Assembly: GCA_014240275.1 (NCBI GenBank)
Contig: JAAZXH010000004.1
Location: forward strand, 11,342 to 75,341
Origin: Candidatus Peregrinibacteria bacterium
Lineage (GTDB): Bacteria; Patescibacteriota; Gracilibacteria; UBA1369; GCA-2718715
Direction: 5' to 3'
Length of the DNA stretch: 64,000 bases
Shown piece by piece: positions 11,413-52,839 of the stretch; positions within the stretch are counted from its first letter, which is position 1, and every line of letters begins with the position of its first letter. The notes under the pieces are model-generated. The model searched no databases and had not been told where the DNA came from. It saw only the letters and a list, made by a program, of their open reading frames with translations. Position numbers and translations under genes: made by a program.

Positions 11413-13000
11413 TCCGTAAGGTTTTTAGCTTTTTTAGATTGATGGCTCCAAGCATGTGCATGCTTATGAAATAGAAACAAGCTGCACTTGGAATAATTAA
11501 TAAAAGGTTTAGGTTTTGCATCCAGCTATATGTAATAGGTTGAAGGAGGTAAATGAACCCGCCCATTAGTATACTTGCAAAATAGGTTTTGCCAAGTGTT
11601 TTTAAGTTCAGTTGAATACCGGAGTGTTGTTTGTAGCAGTAAAAAGCCAACATAAAGACGCACAGCTCACAGAAGGCTGTGGTGGTACTGGCAGCTAAAA
11701 TGCCATATTTGGGTATGAAGATGAGGTTGAGCACAACATTAATTAGAAACCCAGTGAAGTTGATTTTTAGTAAGGTGGTATTTCTGTCGGTTGCTACTAG
11801 GCTAAAGGCAAAAATGGTATTTAAGAACGAAAAATATAATCCAATTAAAATTATTTTGAAGGCTATGTCAGATCCAGTTTGGTAAAAGTAGCTATTTGTT
11901 GGGCTTTGTTTAAAGCTTTGATTAATAGGGGTTTGGGCACATTGGATTTCCGCTTCGGCCTGTTGATGGTAAACAACTTGGCTGTTGTTGGTACAGTGGT
12001 ATCCGCTTAAAAATTGAGGGGAGCTAATGCTAAAAATAATTGGAAAGGCCAGTAAAACGCCTCCAATTAGGATAGGTGCCGCAAGACCATGGAGGACTTT
12101 AAAGATGTTTTGTAGGCTGGCGTTGAGTTTTTGGTATCCAGATTGGAAGTTCTTTGTCAGGGTTGGAAGAGCTGAGTTCATAAAAAATACTGAAATTACC
12201 GAAAGTATTTCCATGAGTTTTAGAGGTACGGCATAGATTCCAGCGGCGCTGTTGCCGCTAAAATATTGTAAAAGAATGATGTCTACTTTGAAATAAAAGG
12301 TCATTAAAATTAATGCTAGTCCATACGGTAAGGCGGTTTTCAATAAGTTTTTGGCGTATATATGGTCGAAATGAAAGCGAAAGGGAAGTTCTTTTTTGAT
12401 AATAAAAATTGTGCAAAGCAACATGACTAGATTGGCGCCAAGGGCGCTTAAAATTAGGAAGTTGAACCCGTGTTCGAGGTTGCTGGGTTTAAGAATTAAA
12501 ATAATAAATGCAATGAGTCCAATGTTTATAATTTTGCCTAATACTTGGGCAATCGTTGCGAGATGCATTTTAAGTCTATATTGTAGGAGGCTCGTTAAGG
12601 TTCCGTTTATTAAAACAAAAGCCGTGGCCAGGCTTACTAGGCTAATACTTTTGGCTACCAAGGTACCAGCGTATTTGGGGATGAGAGGGATTATAATGTT
12701 GGAGGAACCAAGTAAAAGGGTGATTAAAATGAGTCTTAAGGTTAGAATGTGGCTTAAAACAAAGCTTTCGGAGTTGTTGTTTTTGGACATTTCTTGCACA
12801 CCTATGGTATATAGGCCAAAGTCGGCTATAATTGCGAAGAACCCTATTAGCTCAAATACGGTTGTATATTGACCATAAACTTCTAGCGGCAGGTAGGAGG
12901 TAATAAGTTTAATTGAGATTAAACCAATGATGGCTTGGGCCAGTCGTCCGAAAATTTGCCAAAAGGTGTTGGTGAAAATTTTGAAAGAAAGTCGATTCAT
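11405..13000 (-). CDS. MOP-superfamily oligosaccharide/polysaccharide flippase (Wzx-like)
   Basis: 531 aa that is hydrophobic throughout, with many predicted TM segments. The N-terminus 'NTFWQIFGRLAQAIIGLISIKLITSYLPLEVYGQY' is typical of polysaccharide-biosynthesis flippases. It overlaps murD by 8 nt. Confidence 0.7.
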   Translation of the reverse strand: MNRLSFKIFTNTFWQIFGRLAQAIIGLISIKLITSYLPLEVYGQYTTVFELIGFFAIIADFGLYTIGVQEMSKNNNSESFVLSHILTLRLILITLLLGSSNIIIPLIPKYAGTLVAKSISLVSLATAFVLINGTLTSLLQYRLKMHLATIAQVLGKIINIGLIAFIILILKPSNLEHGFNFLILSALGANLVMLLCTIFIIKKELPFRFHFDHIYAKNLLKTALPYGLALILMTFYFKVDIILLQYFSGNSAAGIYAVPLKLMEILSVISVFFMNSALPTLTKNFQSGYQKLNASLQNIFKVLHGLAAPILIGGVLLAFPIIFSISSPQFLSGYHCTNNSQVVYHQQAEAEIQCAQTPINQSFKQSPTNSYFYQTGSDIAFKIILIGLYFSFLNTIFAFSLVATDRNTTLLKINFTGFLINVVLNLIFIPKYGILAASTTTAFCELCVFMLAFYCYKQHSGIQLNLKTLGKTYFASILMGGFIYLLQPITYSWMQNLNLLLIIPSAACFYFISMHMLGAINLKKLKTLRNV

Positions 13001-13314
13001 GCTATATTTTTATAGATTGATTATATTAGAAAATGGAAATTTTAACAAATTGGAATGCATGAGTTTAAAAAACGTTTAGATATTTTACAAGAATTGTTTG
13101 AAAACGCAGTTGAAACCACAAAAAAAGTTTCTAATTTAGACTCGGTGATTACACGTTTTAAAAAGTTAGCTGAAGAAATGTTAGGGGACCCGTTGCTCGA
13201 TGATAAGGATCACGAGGTTGTTGTTTCAAATTTGGAGGCAAAGTTTGATAAGTTACATACAGGCAAGTTCGACAAAAATAATGCAATCCTGTCAGTAATT
13301 TCTGGTATGGGAGG
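12925..13314. repeat. left copy of direct duplication (flippase 5' end + intergenic + decayed prfB 5' part)
   Basis: Aligns with 15428-15938. A 41-nt identical run (13061-13101 = 15556-15596) is flanked by substitutions. Relative to the right copy there are three deletions of 96, 18 and 15 nt. Confidence 0.85.
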
Positions 13315-15382
13315 TGGGCCTGCTTGTTCTATCGCCAATGGTGAAGTAGTAACAGATCTTGGCGTGAATCAAGCGAGAGGTGTTAGCGTGGAATCTTGGC
13401 CTCCTTCTCAAGTTAGCCTAAAACCTGAAAAAAGGGTGCTTTTTTTGACAAAGGATCTTGAGTTGATTCGCAAGCAACTTTATGAAGGTGTTAATCTTCG
13501 AATGGAAGATTTTACAGTTGATGACTTGTTGGATGACATTAATACCGATGTTATGACTCCTGCTTGGGTATGTTTTGATCATGACCCTGCAATATTGGCA
13601 GAGAATGCCTATGCTGGACTTCTGCATGAAGGTCGTCGTGTTTTTGAGTCTCGAGCATTGATGGACGGAGGATTCGAAGTAATTGTTAGCGGCCATCGAA
13701 AAGGAACTGGGAGCAGCAGAGAAACTGCGGCTCAATGTGAAAGATGGTCTGGCATTCGGATTGTGATTGCCGCATCTTTTGCACCTATCCATGAGAGGAA
13801 TAACATCAATCTCGGTCAGTTGATGGGTAATTATGAGGTTCTAGAGCGTCTACAGAACGGCGAAAGTATTGAATTAGATGAGTTTGTGGGAAAATACGAC
13901 CCGGTGACCAAACTAATTGTGGAAAATGTTGGGCTTTTTCCATTCGCTAAGAGAATGAAGGCTGGCGATATTGAGTTACCTGAAGTGGGTAGTGAGCCAG
14001 TTCCAATGACCATGGCTGAGAAGATGATTTCCAACAAATTGCTAGGTCAGAATGGTGTGCCCGGTTACGTTAAGCCGGGGGAGGCGGTACTGGCTCAAGT
14101 TGATGGAGGTTATTCTCATGAATTCACCACTGCTCAGGTACATAACTTTTTAGTTGCAGAATATGGTGAGGATTATTCGTTACCAAATCCACCAAAGTTT
14201 GCGGTGTTCGAAGATCATTTGTTGTATGCGACGGGGGTCGCAAGGTTCGTTCGTTTTGAGCAAAAGATCCAGATCTTACGTGATTTGCAAGTAGCTTTCC
14301 AGCTGCATACGGGAGTGAGGGATTATTCTGCAGTGAATGGGGTTAGCCCGGGAATATGTCATCAAGTTGCTCGAGAGGAATTTATTGATGTTGGTGATTT
14401 CATCCAAGCAACCGATAGTCACACCTGCATGGGTGGGGCAAGTAATGCTCTGACATACGGAGTTGGTTCAACTGAATACGCAAACTTGGTATATAACCAA
14501 TTCGCATTCGTGAAAGTCCCAGAGAGTATCCGCTTTGAATTTGTTGGAAGTTTAGATTCGGGTTGCACTGCAAAGGATGTAATTCTGCACATCCTTTGGA
14601 AATATGCAGCACAATCAGATACTCTCGACCGCTCGATGGAATTTGGTGGTCCTGGGTTGGCATCACTTTCTATGGATGAAAGAGCAACTCTTTGCAATAT
14701 GGCCACAGAGTGTTCGGCAAAGACTGGCATCTGTGAACCAGATGATTTGACTGTTGAATGGTTAATGGCAAGACGGGATGATTTGACTGAAAATGAGATT
14801 CGTTCGGCCTTTGTTCTTCCTGATGAGAATGCTGTTTACCACGGAGGTGTGCATGAAATTGACCTGTCTGCAATTAGACCGATGGTAGCACACCCTGGAG
14901 ACCCAGATGCTGGAGTCCCATCAGACCCTACAAACGGAGCATACATCGAGGATCTAGGAGATGTGATGATTGATATTGCATACGCTGGCTCATGTACTGC
15001 AGGTAAGGAAGATGACTTTGCATATTACGCAATGGTAACTCAAGCCGCTCTTGATGCTGGTTTGACAGTAGCGCCGCATGTAGACTGTTATATCCAATTT
15101 GGTTCTAAGGTTGTTAAGGATTTGTCGGTGCGAAATGGATGGAGTGAGTTGTTTGAGCGGGCTGGAGTCAAACTACTTGATCCGGGTTGTGGTGCCTGTA
15201 TTGGTGCTGGGCCTGGTGTTTCTGAACTAGAAAGTCAAGTCACGGTATCAGCGATAAACCGTAATTTTCAAGGCCGCTCTGGACCAGGAAAGTTGTACCT
15301 TGCAAGCCCTCTGACGGTAATGGCGAGCGCCTTCACGGGAAAGATTACGGCTTGGCGTCCAGATTTGTTTGAACAGAGTTAA
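13055..15382 (+). CDS. chimeric ORF: RF2 N-terminal remnant fused to a single-chain aconitase-superfamily hydro-lyase (LeuD-like swivel domain followed by LeuC-like domains)
   Basis: 775 aa. Residues 1-86 align to the PrfB encoded at 15550. The remainder carries LeuD-type motifs 'DINTDVMTPA', 'GTGSSRETAAQ' and 'ASFAPIHERNNINLGQL'. These are followed by LeuC-type motifs 'MTMAEKM', 'TDSHTCMGGA', 'GSCTAGKEDD', 'PGCGACIGAGPG' and 'NRNFQGRSG'. Composition is markedly GC-richer than the flanks. Confidence 0.85.
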   Translation: MHEFKKRLDILQELFENAVETTKKVSNLDSVITRFKKLAEEMLGDPLLDDKDHEVVVSNLEAKFDKLHTGKFDKNNAILSVISGMGGGPACSIANGEVVTDLGVNQARGVSVESWPPSQVSLKPEKRVLFLTKDLELIRKQLYEGVNLRMEDFTVDDLLDDINTDVMTPAWVCFDHDPAILAENAYAGLLHEGRRVFESRALMDGGFEVIVSGHRKGTGSSRETAAQCERWSGIRIVIAASFAPIHERNNINLGQLMGNYEVLERLQNGESIELDEFVGKYDPVTKLIVENVGLFPFAKRMKAGDIELPEVGSEPVPMTMAEKMISNKLLGQNGVPGYVKPGEAVLAQVDGGYSHEFTTAQVHNFLVAEYGEDYSLPNPPKFAVFEDHLLYATGVARFVRFEQKIQILRDLQVAFQLHTGVRDYSAVNGVSPGICHQVAREEFIDVGDFIQATDSHTCMGGASNALTYGVGSTEYANLVYNQFAFVKVPESIRFEFVGSLDSGCTAKDVILHILWKYAAQSDTLDRSMEFGGPGLASLSMDERATLCNMATECSAKTGICEPDDLTVEWLMARRDDLTENEIRSAFVLPDENAVYHGGVHEIDLSAIRPMVAHPGDPDAGVPSDPTNGAYIEDLGDVMIDIAYAGSCTAGKEDDFAYYAMVTQAALDAGLTVAPHVDCYIQFGSKVVKDLSVRNGWSELFERAGVKLLDPGCGACIGAGPGVSELESQVTVSAINRNFQGRSGPGKLYLASPLTVMASAFTGKITAWRPDLFEQS

Positions 15383-15427
15383 AGGCCCTGAACACATGAG
15401 CGAGAAACTAGAATTTATTTGTTAAGA
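13315..15427. other. compositionally foreign insert (probable horizontal acquisition)
   Basis: The 60 nt at 14041-14100 contain 36 G+C, against 15 G+C in the 60 nt at 15541-15600. The segment is bounded on both sides by the direct duplication. No integrase or transposase is present. Confidence 0.7.
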
Positions 15428-15495
15428 CAATGGGCTAGTTGTCTGAAAATTTGCCAAAAGGTGTTGGTGAAAACTTTGAAAGAAAGTCAATTCAT
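15428..15495 (-). pseudogene. dead 5' fragment of the flippase gene inside the right repeat copy
   Basis: The minus strand reads ATG AAT TGA, where the intact gene at 13000 has ATG AAT CGA. Homology then continues for about 20 codons and stops abruptly near 15428. Confidence 0.75.
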
Positions 15496-15938
15496 GCTAT
15501 ATTTTTATAGTTAGATTATATTAGATAATCGAAATTTTAATAAATTGGAATGCACGAGTTTAAAAAACGTTTAGATATTTTACAAGAATTGTTTGATAAG
15601 GCACTAGAAGTTGTAAATCTAGAGCAACTAAAACAGGAGAAATTAGAACTAGAAGAGGCTATGCAAGATCCTCATTTTTGGGATCAGGCCGAAAAGGCAG
15701 CTGAAATTACTAAAAAAGTTTCTAATTTAGATTCGGAGATTACGCATTTTGAAAAGTTAGCTGAAGAAATTAGTTTTGCTAAAGAAATGGTAGGGGAGCA
15801 GTTGCTCGATGACAAAGAGTTAGATGCTGCTGTTTCAAATTTGGAAGCAAAGTTTGATAAGTTACAAATCGCGACTTTTTTTACAGGAAAGTTCGACAAA
15901 AACAACGTAATTTTGACGGTAATTTGTGGTATGGGAGG
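15428..15938. repeat. right copy of direct duplication (flippase 5' fragment + intergenic + intact prfB 5' part)
   Basis: See the left copy. Homology ends at GGTATGGGAGG (13304-13314 = 15928-15938). Confidence 0.85.
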
Positions 15939-16632
15939 CAAGGATGCTCAGGATTTTACTAAGCTTATTACTCAAATGTACCAAAAATACTGTGAAAAAT
16001 CGGATTTTGATTGTCAGGTTTTGGATATTTCTTATGCTGAAGCTGGATTTAAGTCTGCGACTTTAAAGATCAGCGGACAATTCGCTTATGGTTGGTTGAA
16101 GTTTGAGCACGGGGTACACAGGTTGATTCGTTTGAGCCCTTTTAATACTGGTAATACCAGAGAAACATCTTTTGTAATGGTTGATGTGTTGCCAGAGGTT
16201 GATTTTGATGACAGTGTTAAGTTAGAAGAAAAAGATTTGCGAATTGATGCGTTTAAAAGCTCTGGCCCTGGAGGTCAGTCGGTTAACACGACAGATTCTG
16301 CTGTGCGGATTACGCATTTGCCAACATCGATTGTAGTTAGTTGTCAGAATGAACGTAGTCAGCACCAAAACAAAGAAAATGCAATGCGCCTTCTAACTGC
16401 GAAATTAGTTAAGCTGATGCATGACAAGCAAGCTCAAACCTTAGATGATTTGCGAGGTCATAAAAATGAAATTTCCTTTGGAAACCAAATTCGAACTTAT
16501 ACTATGCACCCTTATCAATTGGTAAAGGACCATAGAACAAATTTTGAATTTAAAAATATCGCGGCGGTATTGGAGGGTAATATAGATGAGTTTTTACGTG
16601 CTGAGGTTGAAAATTTAACAGAAATCAGGTAA
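15550..16632 (+). CDS. prfB: peptide chain release factor 2
   Basis: 360 aa with the RF2-specific 'SPF' tripeptide (RLSPFNTGNTRETSF) and the GGQ motif (SGPGGQSVNTTDSAVR). It is a single uninterrupted ORF with no programmed +1 frameshift site. Confidence 0.95.
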   Translation: MHEFKKRLDILQELFDKALEVVNLEQLKQEKLELEEAMQDPHFWDQAEKAAEITKKVSNLDSEITHFEKLAEEISFAKEMVGEQLLDDKELDAAVSNLEAKFDKLQIATFFTGKFDKNNVILTVICGMGGKDAQDFTKLITQMYQKYCEKSDFDCQVLDISYAEAGFKSATLKISGQFAYGWLKFEHGVHRLIRLSPFNTGNTRETSFVMVDVLPEVDFDDSVKLEEKDLRIDAFKSSGPGGQSVNTTDSAVRITHLPTSIVVSCQNERSQHQNKENAMRLLTAKLVKLMHDKQAQTLDDLRGHKNEISFGNQIRTYTMHPYQLVKDHRTNFEFKNIAAVLEGNIDEFLRAEVENLTEIR

Positions 16633-48189: not shown

Positions 48190-48960
48190 TTGTATTATCC
48201 TTTGCTGGTAATAATGAGACTTATGTTGAGCTTAAAAAATTTATCTGTTTCGGCCGATTCTAAACAAATTTTACAGGATATTAATTTAGAAATTGGCCCT
48301 TCTGAAATTCACTGTGTAATGGGGCCAAATGGTTCTGGTAAGTCTACGTTGGTAAATAGTTTGATGGGTCACCCGAAATATAGTGTTGATGCAGAGCAAA
48401 TGAGTTTTCAGGGTAAAGACTTGCAGGAGCTTGAACCTTTTGAACGTGCACGTTTGGGTATTTTTTTAGCCCAGCAGTATCCAAAAGAAATTCCGGGAGT
48501 TAATTTTTTAAACTTTTTAACAGCAGCTTTTAATGGTTGTCATTCTGAAATTGAGAGTTTTAAACCTATGAAGGCTTTTAAAATGAAAAAAAAGATTATG
48601 CCATTGCTTGAAGATTTGAATTTAAATCCAGATTTTTTAAAGCGATATTTGAATCATGGTTTTTCTGGAGGAGAAAAAAAGAAGGCAGAAATTTTACAAC
48701 TGCAACTTTTAGATCCAAACTTAGCATTGTTAGATGAAACTGATTCTGGGCTTGATGTCGATGCCTTGAGAATAGTTGGAGAAGGAGTTTCTAAGTTTGT
48801 AAATTCTGAGAAGTCAGTTTTAATTGTGACTCATTACCAAAGGATTTTAGAATACTTAAAGCCAGATTTTGTTCATATTATTAAGGATGGTCGTTTGGTA
48901 AAAAGTGGTGGAGCTGATTTGGCTAGAAAAATTGAAAAAGAAGGATTTAACTGGGTTTAA
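48190..48960 (+). CDS. sufC: Fe-S cluster assembly ATPase SufC
   Basis: Walker A 'GPNGSGKST', 'GFSGGEKKKAEILQL' and 'LDETDSGLD'. The real start is probably Met12 (MLSLKNLSV, about nt 48223). Confidence 0.93.
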   Translation: MYYPLLVIMRLMLSLKNLSVSADSKQILQDINLEIGPSEIHCVMGPNGSGKSTLVNSLMGHPKYSVDAEQMSFQGKDLQELEPFERARLGIFLAQQYPKEIPGVNFLNFLTAAFNGCHSEIESFKPMKAFKMKKKIMPLLEDLNLNPDFLKRYLNHGFSGGEKKKAEILQLQLLDPNLALLDETDSGLDVDALRIVGEGVSKFVNSEKSVLIVTHYQRILEYLKPDFVHIIKDGRLVKSGGADLARKIEKEGFNWV

Positions 48961-50363
48961 TGAATGATGCAATTTTTGCAGGTTTAGATCGGGAGGTTTT
49001 TGATAAGCACAATGATTATGCTTACCAAGATCAATTTGATAAAGGATTGAATGAACAGTTGATTCGCTCTATTTCTAAAGATAAAGAAGAGCCTGAATGG
49101 ATGTTGGAATTTCGTTTAAAAGCTTTGCAAGAATTTAGAGAACTAAAGTTTCCAAAATGGGGTCCTGATTTGCAAGATTTAGATTTAGAACAAATTACTT
49201 ATTTTGCTAAGGCGGATGCAAATAAAAATGCTAAAAGTTGGGATGAAGTTCCAGATGATATTAAGGAAACTTTTGAGAAGCTTGGAATTCCAGAGGCTGA
49301 GCGTAAGGTTTTGGCAGGAGTTGGAGCTCAATATGAAAGTGAGGTGGTGTATCATAAATTAAAAGAGGAGTGGGAAGGTCAGGGTGTTATTTTTGAAGAT
49401 TGTGATATTGCGATTAAAAAATATCCAGAGCTTTTTAAAAAACACTTTATGAAATGTGTACCAGTTCGTGATCATAAGTTTGCAGCTTTGCATGCAGCTG
49501 TATGGAGTGGGGGAACTTTCTTATATGTACCAAAGGGTGTGAAGTTGACAGAACCTTTACAGGCTTACTTTCGAATGAATGCTCCTGGACAGGGTCAATT
49601 TGAACATACTTTGATTATTATTGAAGATGAGGCCGAAGCTCATTATATTGAAGGTTGTTCAGCTCCGAAATATGGAGAAAATGCCTTGCATGCTGGTTGT
49701 GTTGAAATTTTTGTGGGTAAAAATGCAAAAATGCGTTACTCTAGTGTGGAAAACTGGAGTAAAGATACTTACAACTTAAATACTAAGCGAGCTGTGGTTG
49801 CTGAAAACTCAACTATGGAATGGGTAGGCGGCAATATGGGTTCAGGAGTTACGATGTTGTATCCATGTACTATTTTGAAAGGTCGGGGAGCGCACGCTGA
49901 CCATTTAGGAATTGCCTTTGCAAATGAAGGTCAATTACAAGACACTGGAGCGAAAGTGATTTGTGCAGCCGATGATACTAGTTGTAATGTGGTGATGAAA
50001 TCTCTTTCAAAAGCTGGTGGTATTTCGGTTTACCGAGGACTGTTAAAAGTTATGCCAAATTGTAAAAATGTAGCTTGTCGAGTTGAATGTGATGCTTTGA
50101 TTTTAGATGAAATTTCTCGTTCTGATACTATTCCGGATATGCAAATTTTGTCGGATGATGTTTCGATTGCTCATGAGGCGCGAGCCGGTAAAATTAACGA
50201 AGATGATTTATTTTATTTGATGAGTAAGGGGATCGAAGAAGAAACAGCTATGGCTATGATCGTTAATGGTTTTATAGATCCAATTGTACGTGAACTTCCT
50301 ATGGAATATGCTGTAGAAATGAATCGCTTAATAGAACTTGAAATGGAAGGCTCGGTTGGCTAA
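48960..50363 (+). CDS. sufB: Fe-S cluster assembly scaffold SufB
   Basis: 467 aa with a conserved SufB N-terminal region and beta-helix core, plus the C-terminal 'HEARAGKINEDDLFYLMSKGI'. The start overlaps the sufC stop (TAATG). Confidence 0.93.
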   Translation: MNDAIFAGLDREVFDKHNDYAYQDQFDKGLNEQLIRSISKDKEEPEWMLEFRLKALQEFRELKFPKWGPDLQDLDLEQITYFAKADANKNAKSWDEVPDDIKETFEKLGIPEAERKVLAGVGAQYESEVVYHKLKEEWEGQGVIFEDCDIAIKKYPELFKKHFMKCVPVRDHKFAALHAAVWSGGTFLYVPKGVKLTEPLQAYFRMNAPGQGQFEHTLIIIEDEAEAHYIEGCSAPKYGENALHAGCVEIFVGKNAKMRYSSVENWSKDTYNLNTKRAVVAENSTMEWVGGNMGSGVTMLYPCTILKGRGAHADHLGIAFANEGQLQDTGAKVICAADDTSCNVVMKSLSKAGGISVYRGLLKVMPNCKNVACRVECDALILDEISRSDTIPDMQILSDDVSIAHEARAGKINEDDLFYLMSKGIEEETAMAMIVNGFIDPIVRELPMEYAVEMNRLIELEMEGSVG

Positions 50364-50372
50364 TTACAATTT

Positions 50373-51230
50373 ATGAATGATAAAAAATTATTAAAATCTC
50401 CGATCAAGAATTTGCTTGAAATTTATGATATAAAGCCTTTTTTAAAGGTTGCGGGTAATCAAAAAATAGACTTGTGTCAGCAGGGTATAAGTTTTGAAAA
50501 TAAGGAGATGAAAATTTTGGCTGGGGAGCCGGTGAGTCTAGATTTATCAGAGTCTGATTATTCAGGTTTACAGATTTCATTAGATAAAAATGCAGTTTTG
50601 AATTTGAATGTTTTTGAAAATCAATACTTGAGTAATTTAAATATTGAAATTTTAGATGGAGCCTCTTTAAAATTGAATATTATTAAAAAAGCTTCAGAGC
50701 AGATTTTGAATTTGCAAATTAAAATTGCAAGTAATGCCAGGCTTGAGTTAAATACTCTTGGGGTTTGTGATCATATGCAGGTGTTTGATGTACAAGTTTT
50801 GTGTGAAGGAAAAAATTCCACATTAGATATTGCTCATTTGAGTTCTTGTAGTGCTAAGGCCAAGGCATCTGATAGATTTAGTTTAAATTTTTTGAACCAA
50901 AATAATAAGGCGGATATGTTATTGCAAACTTTGGCTATGGACTATTCTAAGGTCCAAAGTTTAGGAAAGATCAATATATCTGAGAAGGCACGTTTAACTG
51001 ATTCTAATATGAAGCAGGAAGTCTTATTGTTAGATAAATCTGCGACAGCTTTAGCTGTTCCGGAATTAGTGATTTGTACAAATGATGTTAAGGCTGGTCA
51101 CGGAGTTAGTATTGCTAAAATTGATGCTGAGAAATTATTTTATTTGATGAGTCGAGGTTTGAGTCGAAGTCAATCTTTTGATTTAATTGTTGAGTCTTAT
51201 AGACAAGTGATGTTAGAAAGAATGCAGTAA
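50373..51230 (+). CDS. sufD: Fe-S cluster assembly protein SufD (short form)
   Basis: 285 aa with the SufB/D C-terminal core 'AGHGVSIAKIDAEKLFYLMSRGL', in the operon position after sufB. Confidence 0.7.
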   Translation: MNDKKLLKSPIKNLLEIYDIKPFLKVAGNQKIDLCQQGISFENKEMKILAGEPVSLDLSESDYSGLQISLDKNAVLNLNVFENQYLSNLNIEILDGASLKLNIIKKASEQILNLQIKIASNARLELNTLGVCDHMQVFDVQVLCEGKNSTLDIAHLSSCSAKAKASDRFSLNFLNQNNKADMLLQTLAMDYSKVQSLGKINISEKARLTDSNMKQEVLLLDKSATALAVPELVICTNDVKAGHGVSIAKIDAEKLFYLMSRGLSRSQSFDLIVESYRQVMLERMQ

Positions 51231-51288
51231 TTAGCTTTGGTTTGCATAATTTAAAATTTATGTTACTATAGCAGGGCTAAATAAAGTT

Positions 51289-52473
51289 ATGTTCAAACAA
51301 TATTTTCCAATTTTTAAAAACCAAGAGGATTTAGTTTATCTGGATTCTGCTGCTACGACTTTAAAGCCAGCCGTTTTATTGCAAAGTTTGGAAGGTTATT
51401 ATGAAAATTATACGGCAAATGTTCATCGAGGTTTGTATCCAAACGCAGAAAAAGTAACAGAGGAGTTTGATCAAGCTCGAACTGTTGTTGCTAATTTAAT
51501 TAATGCCAATTCGAATGAAATTGTTTTTACCCACAATGCAACTGATGCGTTAAATACTATTGCTTTGGCTTTGGATAGTCAGCAGTTACAAGGTCGAAAA
51601 GTTTTAATTTCTGAATCTGAGCATCATAGTAATTTAGTGGTATGGCAGGAGTTTGCAAAACGTAACAAGCTAGAACTTTGTATAGTAGAATATGCCGAAA
51701 ATTGGGAACAAGATTTATTAGACCAGATAGATGATTCAGTTGCTTTGCTTGGACTTTCTTTGATGAGCAACGTGACAGGGTTGAGACCTCAAAGTTTAGA
51801 TAAAATTATGAAAAAGGCCTCAGGATCTAAGGTTATAACTGTTTTAGATGCTTGTCAGTCGATTGTGCATCAGCAAGATGATGTGAAAGCTTTAAATTGT
51901 GATTTTTTGGTTTTTTCAGCTCATAAACTGTATGGTCCAACTGGTCTTGGGATTTTGTATATTAAATCAAATTTAATGCAGCTTTTAAATCCAGTCCGAT
52001 TTGGTGGTGGAATGGTGGAAGATGTTCAACGGTCTCAAAGTTCTTATCTTGAAGGCCCTATGAAGTTTGAGGCCGGTACTCCAAATATTGCTGCGGTTTT
52101 GGCTTTTGCAAAGGTCTTGGAGTTTTTAAGAGAAATTAGTTTTGAAAAAATTTATATTTATGAACTAGAATTAGCAAAATATTTACACCAGCAATTATCT
52201 CAGTTATCTGGCTTTAAAGTTTTGGGAGGTTTGCAGTCTGTTCGAACTTTATATGCTTTAGATTTTGATATGGTTCATTCCCATGACTTAGCTTATGGTT
52301 TAGGTATGAAAAACATTTGTGTTAGAGCTGGTCAGCATTGTACTAACCCCTTACATGCTAGTTTGGATAGTCGAGCAAGTTTGCGAGTTAGTTTGGGGAT
52401 GTATAATACTTGTGAAGATATTGATAAATTTGTTTTGGAGCTTAAAAAAGTACTTAATTTTTTTAAGAAATAG
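51289..52473 (+). CDS. sufS: cysteine desulfurase SufS (class II aminotransferase V)
   Basis: 394 aa with the PLP lysine in 'FSAHKLYGPTG' and the active-site Cys in 'RAGQHCTNPL'. Confidence 0.9.
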   Translation: MFKQYFPIFKNQEDLVYLDSAATTLKPAVLLQSLEGYYENYTANVHRGLYPNAEKVTEEFDQARTVVANLINANSNEIVFTHNATDALNTIALALDSQQLQGRKVLISESEHHSNLVVWQEFAKRNKLELCIVEYAENWEQDLLDQIDDSVALLGLSLMSNVTGLRPQSLDKIMKKASGSKVITVLDACQSIVHQQDDVKALNCDFLVFSAHKLYGPTGLGILYIKSNLMQLLNPVRFGGGMVEDVQRSQSSYLEGPMKFEAGTPNIAAVLAFAKVLEFLREISFEKIYIYELELAKYLHQQLSQLSGFKVLGGLQSVRTLYALDFDMVHSHDLAYGLGMKNICVRAGQHCTNPLHASLDSRASLRVSLGMYNTCEDIDKFVLELKKVLNFFKK

Positions 52474-52476
52474 TTT

Positions 52477-52839
52477 ATGAATATTTATTACCAAAATATT
52501 ATGGATCATTTTCATAACCCTGAGTGTTATGTTAAGTTAACTGATTATACAACTTGTTTTGAATTAAAAAACTTAAGTTGTGGTGATCAAATTAAAGTTT
52601 ATTTAAAGTTAGAAGGTGATATTTTAAAAGATGTAAGTTTTGAAGGAGAAGGTTGTGCTATATCTCAGGCAGCAGCCTCTATGTTTTTAAGTGAAATTAT
52701 TGGTAAGTCTAAAAAAGAAATTTTAGATTTGGATAAGCAGTTTATTCTTGATTTAATAGAAATGCACCTTTCTCCAGTAAGATTGAAGTGTGCTTTGTTG
52801 TGTATGGAAGCTGTTAAAAAGGCAATTCTTAGTTTATAA
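52477..52839 (+). CDS. sufU: SufU/IscU-like sulfur-transfer protein
   Basis: 120 aa with 'SCGDQIKVYL', 'GEGCAISQAAASM' and a C-terminal 'RLKCALL'. Confidence 0.85.
   Translation: MNIYYQNIMDHFHNPECYVKLTDYTTCFELKNLSCGDQIKVYLKLEGDILKDVSFEGEGCAISQAAASMFLSEIIGKSKKEILDLDKQFILDLIEMHLSPVRLKCALLCMEAVKKAILSL

Follow-up and report, generated by a model that had tools for sequence, protein, structure and literature searches.

A gene at positions 13055 to 15382 of a 64,000-nucleotide stretch of Candidatus Peregrinibacteria DNA (contig JAAZXH010000004.1 of assembly GCA_014240275.1, positions 11,342 to 75,341; hereafter the window, whose own numbering is used throughout) encodes a single-chain member of the aconitase superfamily and was transferred from an archaeon to this candidate phyla radiation (CPR) bacterium. 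We consider it probable that the locus records the capture of a Marine Group II gene, of the MGIIb lineage, behind a duplication of the 5′ part of the release-factor gene prfB, and that the product is a lone [4Fe-4S] hydro-lyase of the alkylmalate type. A sequence-only reading of the same DNA had described the gene as an orphan enzyme acquired singly, a view that is strongly supported, since the donor clade could be identified, the integration site located and an empty site recognized in relatives.

The closest homologues of the protein (80-91% identity) are all from Marine Group II (MGII; Poseidoniales), mostly from the Thalassarchaeaceae/MGIIb genus O1, and the next are from marine Planctomycetota (66-70%). 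Compared with the Thalassarchaeaceae loci, the window reaches 91% identity at the protein level and about 84% at best at the nucleotide level, and in 78 of 80 related loci the DNA similarity is confined to positions 13318-15403. In a maximum-likelihood tree, calculated with a quick LG+G4 search and Shimodaira-Hasegawa-like approximate likelihood ratio test (SH-aLRT) support, the window protein was placed deep within the MGIIb O1 clade (SH-aLRT 97 and 98). The MGII copies show a conserved gene order, with transcription factor IIB (TFIIB) on one side and topoisomerase VI on the other, and of 61 Poseidoniales species genomes, sampled from across the order, 59 carry the gene. It was missing from all nine genomes of the host's family, including a same-genus genome at 94% completeness, and an empty site, in which the flippase gene lies directly beside prfB, was seen in G001 (same genus), G004 and G005. 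Nesting in a donor clade, absence from relatives, an empty site, sharp borders of similarity and real junctions together identify the gene as horizontally acquired.

The structure of the integration was resolved to the base, and its elements are as follows.

12936..13054, + strand: left copy of the prfB promoter and 5′ untranslated region, within a 92% identical 179-nt stretch
13055..15382, + strand: enzyme open reading frame (ORF), the sole ORF of the region, 775 aa
13055..13317, + strand: prfB-derived leader, consisting of the start codon and about 88 codons from prfB codons 1-129, with in-frame deletions
13318..15382, + strand: archaeal (MGIIb) coding sequence, the span to which similarity is limited, with its stop codon at 15380-15382
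15383..15403, + strand: archaeal 3′ flank of 21 nt, MGII similarity running to 15403
15404..15430, no strand: filler of 27 nt, matching neither the MGII loci nor the left flank
15431..16632, + strand: right repeat copy and intact prfB, with the promoter at 15431-15549 and prfB at 15550-16632

The start at 13315 given by the sequence-only reading is thus the edge of the archaeal-derived part, and the ORF begins 260 nt further upstream, in the prfB-derived leader. When the downstream release-factor protein was used as a query, it matched the first 90 codons of the enzyme ORF. Positions 12936-13314 form a direct repeat of 15431-15938, which holds the prfB promoter region and codons 1-129. The identity of the two copies is 92% over the first 179 nt (12936-13114 versus 15431-15609) and 74% thereafter, and the left copy has lost 96, 18 and 15 nt in three deletions, each of a length divisible by three. 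A putative sigma-70-like promoter with an extended -10 element (TTGAAA-16-TATATT) lies at 12981-13008 and is duplicated at 15476-15503. As a result of the 5′ duplication, an intact prfB is left downstream, which scores 416 bits on TIGR00020 (cut-off, 370) and contains the SPF and GGQ motifs. At the left junction, prfB sequence (...GGTATGGGAGG) joins archaeal sequence (...GCCTGCTTGTTC) at an upstream ATG of the MGII frame (ATGAAGGT...), with the imperfect microhomology ATGrrAGG. The ORF therefore runs from the prfB leader of about 88 residues, through 28 codons that lie upstream of the usual MGII start, into the enzyme.

In the course of events that we propose, a Peribacteria-type CPR bacterium would have taken one gene from a Marine Group II archaeon (MGIIb, Thalassarchaeaceae), and the archaeal DNA would have been joined within the 5′ portion of prfB, at the ATGrrAGG microhomology. 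Integration would have duplicated a stretch of about 500 nt with the promoter and 5′ end of prfB, the archaeal gene would be read from the duplicated promoter and start codon as an in-frame fusion, and the leader of about 88 residues would later have been trimmed by the three in-frame deletions.

From the reading frame, translation is predicted to pass through the prfB-derived leader. It is possible, if somewhat unlikely, that the gene is expressed from the captured promoter but starts at ATG 13307 or GTG 13388, so that the leader is outside the protein. The MGII orthologues start at positions equivalent to 13307 or 13388, and the leader is poorly modeled by AlphaFold2, being helical with modest confidence to about residue 84 and of low confidence over residues 74-112. 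Furthermore, the leader has a ratio of nonsynonymous to synonymous divergence (dN/dS) from prfB of about 0.25-0.28, which indicates that its constraint is relaxed. Against such a late start, an 84-codon open frame is improbable by chance in DNA of 34% GC (estimate, about 0.003), all three leader deletions are divisible by three, and the window has Val (GTG) in place of the internal Met at which the 664-aa MGII forms begin.

One contig of sequencing run X5 (contig 9; 5 kb, about 4% diverged) runs along the window from within the flippase gene region up to 13179, beyond which it matches the intact prfB; its letters past 13179 are the 18 nt that are deleted in the window leader. The X5 strain has either a leader that retains those 18 nt or an allele without the insert.

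Both junctions were recovered from sequencing runs. Logan contigs of run X1, which may be the source sample, match the window exactly and bridge both junctions (13133-13934 and 15175-15585), a contig of run X5, from another study and about 4% diverged, bridges the 5′ junction (13278-13748), and two further runs contain the gene with its flanks. The gene is intact and under purifying selection. Its G+C content at third codon positions (GC3) is 0.36, equal to the host value; the G+C of the gene in the sampled MGII loci is 0.46-0.52. For the window lineage, compared with the inferred ancestor of the closest archaeal sequences, we estimated a dS of 0.73 and a dN of 0.023, and the resulting dN/dS of 0.03 lies inside the range of the archaeal branches (0.02-0.05). 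None of the 32 window-specific replacements falls at a catalytic or invariant residue.

In line with this, we consider it unlikely that the locus is an assembly chimera, and equally unlikely that it holds a passenger gene in decay. The former, an artifact of assembly or binning in which an archaeal gene was stitched into a CPR contig, is largely refuted and extremely improbable. CPR bacteria and MGII are both abundant, low-GC members of marine metagenomes, and the insert is flanked by a repeat, at which assemblers break (X5 contig ends lie near 13179 and 15393); however, CPR DNA is present on both flanks of the gene in a contig of more than 75 kb, the exact X1 contigs span both junctions, and the 4%-diverged strain of the other study spans the 5′ junction. 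In addition, GC3 has drifted to the host value, the window DNA is only 84% identical to any sampled archaeon, and the leader carries its three in-frame deletions. That the gene is a functionless passenger in its CPR host, heading to decay, seems very doubtful. Its pathway partners are absent from the host, the replacement G292V affects a nearly invariant glycine, and its end branch (0.094) is longer than those of the archaeal sisters (0.01-0.06). Set against these points are the dN/dS of 0.03 at a dS of 0.73, the lack of any stop or frameshift across 2.3 kb, and the remodeling of synonymous sites to host composition while the protein was conserved. The gene is also kept in strains about 4% apart from different studies, and the leader frame was preserved through deletions of 96, 18 and 15 nt.

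The protein is a single-chain member of the aconitase superfamily with the domain order 4-linker-1-2-3 and a sequence resembling isopropylmalate isomerase (IPMI) and homoaconitase (HACN). Its domains, motifs and key codons are listed below; all motifs quoted in the sequence-only reading were found verbatim in the 775-aa ORF.

About residues 113-300 (nt 13391-13954): swivel domain
Residues 318-766 (nt 14006-15352): domains 1-3
Residues 161-170: motif DINTDVMTPA
Residues 217-227: motif GTGSSRETAAQ
Residues 240-256: motif ASFAPIHERNNINLGQL
Residues 318-324: motif MTMAEKM
Residues 453-462: motif TDSHTCMGGA
Residues 645-654: motif GSCTAGKEDD
Residues 710-721: motif PGCGACIGAGPG
Residues 735-743: motif NRNFQGRSG
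Position 13712: codon of the catalytic base Ser220
Positions 14993, 15188 and 15197: codons of Cys647, Cys712 and Cys715

The proposed arrangement of a LeuD-like swivel domain N-terminal to LeuC-like domains 1-3 on one chain was borne out by Pfam, in which Aconitase_C (PF00694) matched residues 209-256 with 46.6 bits (cut-off, 22.8) and Aconitase (PF00330) matched residues 349-762 with 284.1 bits (cut-off, 28.7). Membership of the superfamily is thus given by the swivel domain and domains 1-3, both above curated cut-offs. The AlphaFold2 model has a mean pLDDT of 87.7 and a pTM of 0.83 and is confident from residue 113 on. The ORF was aligned with Methanocaldococcus jannaschii HacA and LeuC and with pig mitochondrial aconitase to locate the catalytic residues. 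The three cysteines that had been proposed as cluster ligands are intact: C647, C712 and C715 align with C358, C421 and C424 of mitochondrial aconitase and are invariant across an alignment of 36 collinear family members, and the Cys within TDSHTC is no cluster ligand. The catalytic set is complete, comprising D387 and H388 (DH), His436, DSH at 454-456, N548, E552, N735, R736 and R741, together with the GSSR of the swivel domain, which carries Ser220 and Arg222. Among the same 36 members, S220, R222, D387, H388, H436, D454, S455, H456, E552, R736 and R741 are invariant in all, and N548 and N735 are kept in at least 90%.

The closest solved relatives are HacA/HacB and LeuC/LeuD of M. jannaschii (PDB 4kp2, 4kp1, 2pkp and 3vba). 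The large part of the window protein matches these enzymes with an E value of 6e-49 and about 30% identity and superposes on HacA with a Foldseek TM-score of 0.93 (root mean square deviation, 2.2 Å), the swivel domain matches with an E value of 2e-10, and the DSH, GSCT, CGxC, NRNFxGR and GSSRE motifs are common to both. The M. jannaschii enzymes consist of two separate subunits, with the large gene first, whereas the ORF encodes one chain with the small domain first. Foldseek returned only AcnB and AcnX type I as collinear full-length structural matches. The sequence-only reading had taken the swivel-first order as AcnB-type, which holds for AcnB but not for AcnB alone, since AcnX type I shares this order (PMC8184944). 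The same paper lists fungal IPMI as swivel-first, which conflicts with the order of Leu1 and with the large-then-small order that the sequence-only reading gave for fungal fusions, and we do not rely on that entry.

Likeness to LeuC/LeuD and not to AcnB, as had also been proposed, is supported by a score of 275 bits on NF001614 (LeuC/HacA subfamily) compared with 48 bits for AcnB. NF001614 was the best of the NCBIfam models, every one of which fell below its cut-off (385 in this case). The other LeuC/LeuD models reached 211 of 610 bits (TIGR02083), 142 of 560 (TIGR00170) and 55 of 246 (TIGR02084, leuD), the homoaconitase models reached 191 of 550 (NF040615) and 50 of 230 (NF040604), and the AcnB model TIGR00117 reached 47.8 bits (cut-off, 1287). 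Escherichia coli AcnB (PDB 1l5j) has the same 4-linker-1-2-3 order and is a collinear structural match over 715 columns; however, it is only 19% identical to the ORF and has its own swivel family (PF06434) and an N-terminal HEAT-like domain (PF11791), neither of which was matched in the ORF by Pfam. Because of this low identity, the missing PF06434 and HEAT-like domains and the score of 48 against 1287 bits on TIGR00117, the swivel-first permutation most likely arose independently of AcnB.

The permutation noted in the sequence-only reading is real, but the architecture is not rare and instead defines a large, widespread, uncharacterized subfamily, so that the sense of an unusual fusion needs tempering. 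In a search of 1.84 billion representatives, dozens of 620-690-aa proteins aligned with the query end to end at 30-42% identity. A search seeded with one of them led to swivel-first members in Pyrinomonadaceae (including the cultured Pyrinomonas methylaliphatogenes), Blastocatellia, Streptomyces, Catellatospora and Sandaracinaceae, which the databases name only "aconitase family protein" or "3-isopropylmalate dehydratase," and a tblastn search of plasmids revealed full-length members in Paraburkholderia, Caballeronia, Burkholderia, Variovorax, Roseomonas, Microvirga and Streptomyces. The subfamily is thus present in Poseidoniales, marine Planctomycetota, Acidobacteriota, Myxococcota, Streptomyces and Burkholderiales. 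Members from Streptomyces, Acidobacteriota, Myxococcota, Burkholderiales and Roseomonas have the same architecture (645-670 aa; 35-45% identity, collinear) and keep the same invariant residues as the ORF but belong to other clades and other gene contexts. A characterized clade of known substrate that is common in related genomes was looked for and not found, and in the literature searched there was no paper describing the swivel-first IPMI-like subfamily or a characterized member.

In the tree, the MGII and marine Planctomycetota clades neighbor each other, with 66-70% identity between their copies, and the swivel-first family at large is bacterial. An earlier transfer between domains, probably from a bacterium to the MGII ancestor, may have preceded the recent one from archaeon to CPR bacterium. 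A contig filed under a Yoonia sp. metagenome-assembled genome (L022; CAXRJJ010000073.1) has the permuted enzyme flanked by TFIIB and topoisomerase VI, and the sister of its protein in the tree is a Poseidoniales sequence; this looks like an archaeal contig mis-binned into an alphaproteobacterial genome.

The gene contexts of the family bear on its function. A LeuB-type dehydrogenase adjoins the gene or lies just downstream of it in Planctomycetota and Myxococcota, one Planctomycetota neighbor reaching 435 bits on the LeuB equivalog NF002898 (cut-off, 393). A short enzyme resembling isopropylmalate synthase (IPMS) or homocitrate synthase is common to MGII and Planctomycetota, and MGII has a divergent enzyme resembling isopropylmalate dehydrogenase (IPMDH). 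The MGII examples are located as follows.

L094:6786-8042, + strand: MGII short IPMS/homocitrate-synthase-like enzyme
L093:7544-8758, - strand: MGII IPMDH-like enzyme

On a plasmid of Streptomyces sp. KN37 (L108, 5704-9972), three consecutive genes encode a LeuA family protein, a swivel-first member of the aconitase family and a dehydrogenase of the Iso_dh family inside a nonribosomal peptide/polyketide synthetase cluster, with two crotonyl-CoA carboxylase/reductases, a fatty acyl-AMP ligase and a ketoacyl synthase III (KAS III) nearby. Because of the LeuB-type neighbors, the short synthase, the IPMDH-like enzyme and the Streptomyces trio, the evidence points to the family role of an alkylmalate isomerase in a 2-oxoacid chain-elongation module.

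The Streptomyces trio itself looks like a chain-elongation module that supplies a natural product. Three MGII genomes (G041-G043) hold the permuted enzyme, the short synthase and the IPMDH-like enzyme and no IlvD, which may be an undescribed 2-oxoacid module. On plasmids of Paraburkholderia, Roseomonas and Caballeronia (L106, L107 and L110), genes for a LysR regulator, an HMG-CoA-lyase-like protein, a CaiB CoA-transferase, a major facilitator superfamily (MFS) transporter and the swivel-first enzyme form a recurrent operon. This Burkholderiales/Roseomonas operon may serve to catabolize an unsaturated or hydroxy dicarboxylate. The Variovorax member is adjoined by a TctC-type binding protein. 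Since these contexts in Burkholderiales, Roseomonas and Variovorax are without LeuA/LeuB-type partners, stand-alone use of the enzyme has precedent.

The sequence-only reading had found no pathway partners in the window and had left the substrate of the permuted fusion open, and both statements hold. The search for partners was extended to the whole host genome (assembly of 851 kb in 28 contigs, 79% complete), in which we found no other PF00330 gene, no LeuA-type synthase, no citrate synthase and no Iso_dh-family gene, and accordingly none of the LeuB or isocitrate dehydrogenase (IDH) type. With the synthase and dehydrogenase partners missing, the enzyme probably works alone, unless they are encoded in the fifth of the genome that is missing. 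Its most probable function is that of a stand-alone [4Fe-4S] hydro-lyase of the alkylmalate type, the substrate class being suggested by the recognition loop and by the gene neighbors in relatives. In the proposed mechanism, Cys647, Cys712 and Cys715 would hold the [4Fe-4S] cluster, the free iron of which would bind the hydroxyl and a carboxylate of a 2-hydroxy-dicarboxylate, and Ser220 of the GSSR in the swivel domain would remove the proton. The enzyme would dehydrate and rehydrate, i.e., isomerize, an alkyl-substituted malate via an alkylmaleate, and it may act alone on an acid that is imported or derived from a host cell.

Arg26 and Thr27 of HacB are reportedly the specificity determinants of homoaconitase, according to Jeyakanthan et al. 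in 2010. When the substrate loop was inspected, as had been suggested, PAWVCFD of the window protein aligned with GPYLRT of M. jannaschii HacB, which places Phe-Asp at the positions of Arg26-Thr27 (WVCFD compared with YLRT in the M. jannaschii HACN). This replacement argues against a substrate with an extra carboxylate, as specificity in IPMI and HACN is set by this recognition loop of the small domain (PMC7308503, which cites Jeyakanthan et al. for the general role of the loop). The loop thus speaks against HACN and does not establish IPMI; it is variable across the swivel-first family. Identification as homoaconitase is likewise not supported by the equivalog models, all of which scored below cut-off, in addition to the loop without Arg-Thr.

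Some MGII orthologues are named aconitase by NCBI, and the source annotations read "aconitate hydratase." All aconitase catalytic residues are indeed conserved, but it is very unlikely that the gene is the organism's aconitase, converting citrate to isocitrate. MGII and Planctomycetota genomes also hold an AcnA-type enzyme (frame of 790-920 aa), the 79%-complete host genome is without citrate synthase or isocitrate dehydrogenase, the aconitase models score far below their cut-offs, and the Arg that is present where a third carboxylate is accepted is missing from the recognition loop. The reading as an aconitase of the tricarboxylic acid (TCA) cycle was rejected on the grounds of the AcnA-type enzyme of the relatives together with the lack of citrate synthase and IDH in the host.

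A second candidate is the canonical isopropylmalate isomerase of the leucine pathway, a LeuD-LeuC fusion, in the donors as well as in the CPR host. We regard this as rather unlikely, although several points are in its favor. The Planctomycetota gene has the adjacent LeuB equivalog described above, Planctomycetota genomes with such a LeuB have no separate LeuC/LeuD, the loop has Phe in place of the HACN Arg, and the Joint Genome Institute (JGI) name is 3-isopropylmalate/(R)-2-methylmalate dehydratase. On the other side, all LeuC/LeuD equivalog and subfamily cut-offs were missed, the accompanying synthases score far below the IPMS cut-offs, and neither LeuA nor LeuB was found in the CPR host. 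A simple leucine-pathway role is weakened further by the absence of IlvD, considered next.

Several observations weigh against the overall reading of a captured MGIIb gene whose product acts as a lone alkylmalate-type hydro-lyase. A search for IlvD was negative in three MGII and two Planctomycetota genomes but positive in 14 of 14 control genomes, and MGII is reported to be without amino-acid biosynthesis (PMC6461757), so that a leucine-type role is unproven even in the donors. A lone isomerase has no obvious pathway in the CPR cell, and with the host genome 79% complete, partners could lie in the missing fifth. The replacement G292V (13928-13930), in the linker between the swivel domain and domain 1, affects a Gly that is kept in 17 of 17 close archaeal sequences and 30 of 31 distant relatives. 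Part of the dS of the window branch may stem from an unsampled archaeal donor lineage, and some of the purifying selection may therefore predate the transfer. The leader would be left untranslated by initiation at ATG 13307 or GTG 13388, and no RNA run was listed as containing the stretch.

The native surroundings of the insert are bacterial, as shown by a gene for transfer-messenger RNA (tmRNA) in the window. The features concerned are listed below.

2169-2603, - strand: tmRNA gene, full-length, 114 bits on Rfam RF00023
11405..13000, - strand: polysaccharide/lipid-II flippase-type gene (Pfam Polysacc_synt), the native left neighbor of prfB
48190..52839, + strand: sufC-sufB-sufD-sufS-sufU operon (NCBIfam)

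The window also encodes RNase J, a Mur ligase, the flippase, prfB, peptide deformylase (def), FemAB and FtsZ, and the nearest named relatives of its FtsZ are from Gracilibacteria, Peregrinibacteria and Patescibacteria. The sufCBDSU operon that the sequence-only reading had placed in the window is real, and the host Suf system could plausibly load the enzyme's cluster. SufC (TIGR01978), SufB (TIGR01980) and SufU (TIGR01994) scored above their cut-offs; SufD (136 bits; cut-off, 222) and SufS (410 bits; cut-off, 475) are best matches below cut-off.

A composition scan of the host genome for further archaeal genes brought up a GalU-like nucleotidyl-transferase gene (G000:C6:69904-70755, - strand), which has a GC3 of 0.51, the highest of the ORFs (mean ORF G+C of the genome, 0.36). 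Its protein is 100% identical in the same-genus genome G001 and 61% identical in G005, and the gene is therefore native or recently exchanged within the genus and not from MGII. The scan also brought up an S51 peptidase ORF (C10:20778-21467).

The transfer can be compared with those reported for Patescibacteria in mSystems in 2025 (PMC12455944), which likewise represent gene gain by streamlined CPR bacteria and include a few inter-domain events. In that study, the archaeal partners were DPANN (Micrarchaeota and Nanoarchaeota) from groundwater, whereas the donor here is the free-living, planktonic Marine Group II. Unlike those cases, the integration described here is resolved to the base, including the capture of a promoter and a start codon. 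The same paper discusses inter-domain events as a possible trace of physical association. By analogy, marine Peribacteria might be attached to, or feed on, MGII archaea, and the CPR lineage might have taken a core MGII enzyme to process an alkylmalate/alkylmaleate-type acid that is produced or released by the archaeon. A single gene is a slender basis for such an association, and we judge this partnership unlikely. CPR DNA of the window (4.6 kb) was not matched in five MGII assemblies, including the single-cell genome L047, a search that had no positive control and is evidence neither way.

If such a partnership were true, it would provide the first candidate host for a marine CPR bacterium and the first symbiont for MGII, and it would also point to a core metabolite pathway of MGII that has not been described. 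For marine CPR bacteria, whose hosts are unknown, an MGIIb gene that was gained moderately recently and is maintained by selection offers a concrete candidate pairing. The locus is in itself an unusually clean natural case of a foreign inter-domain gene becoming expressible, as the insert came to lie behind a second copy of an essential gene's promoter and start codon and the remaining leader was then trimmed in frame. It also draws attention to a whole branch of the aconitase superfamily that is without an assigned substrate. Yet the enzyme belongs to the core genes of Marine Group II, which ranks with the most abundant archaea in surface ocean waters, and the branch has been recruited in natural-product clusters and catabolic operons as well.

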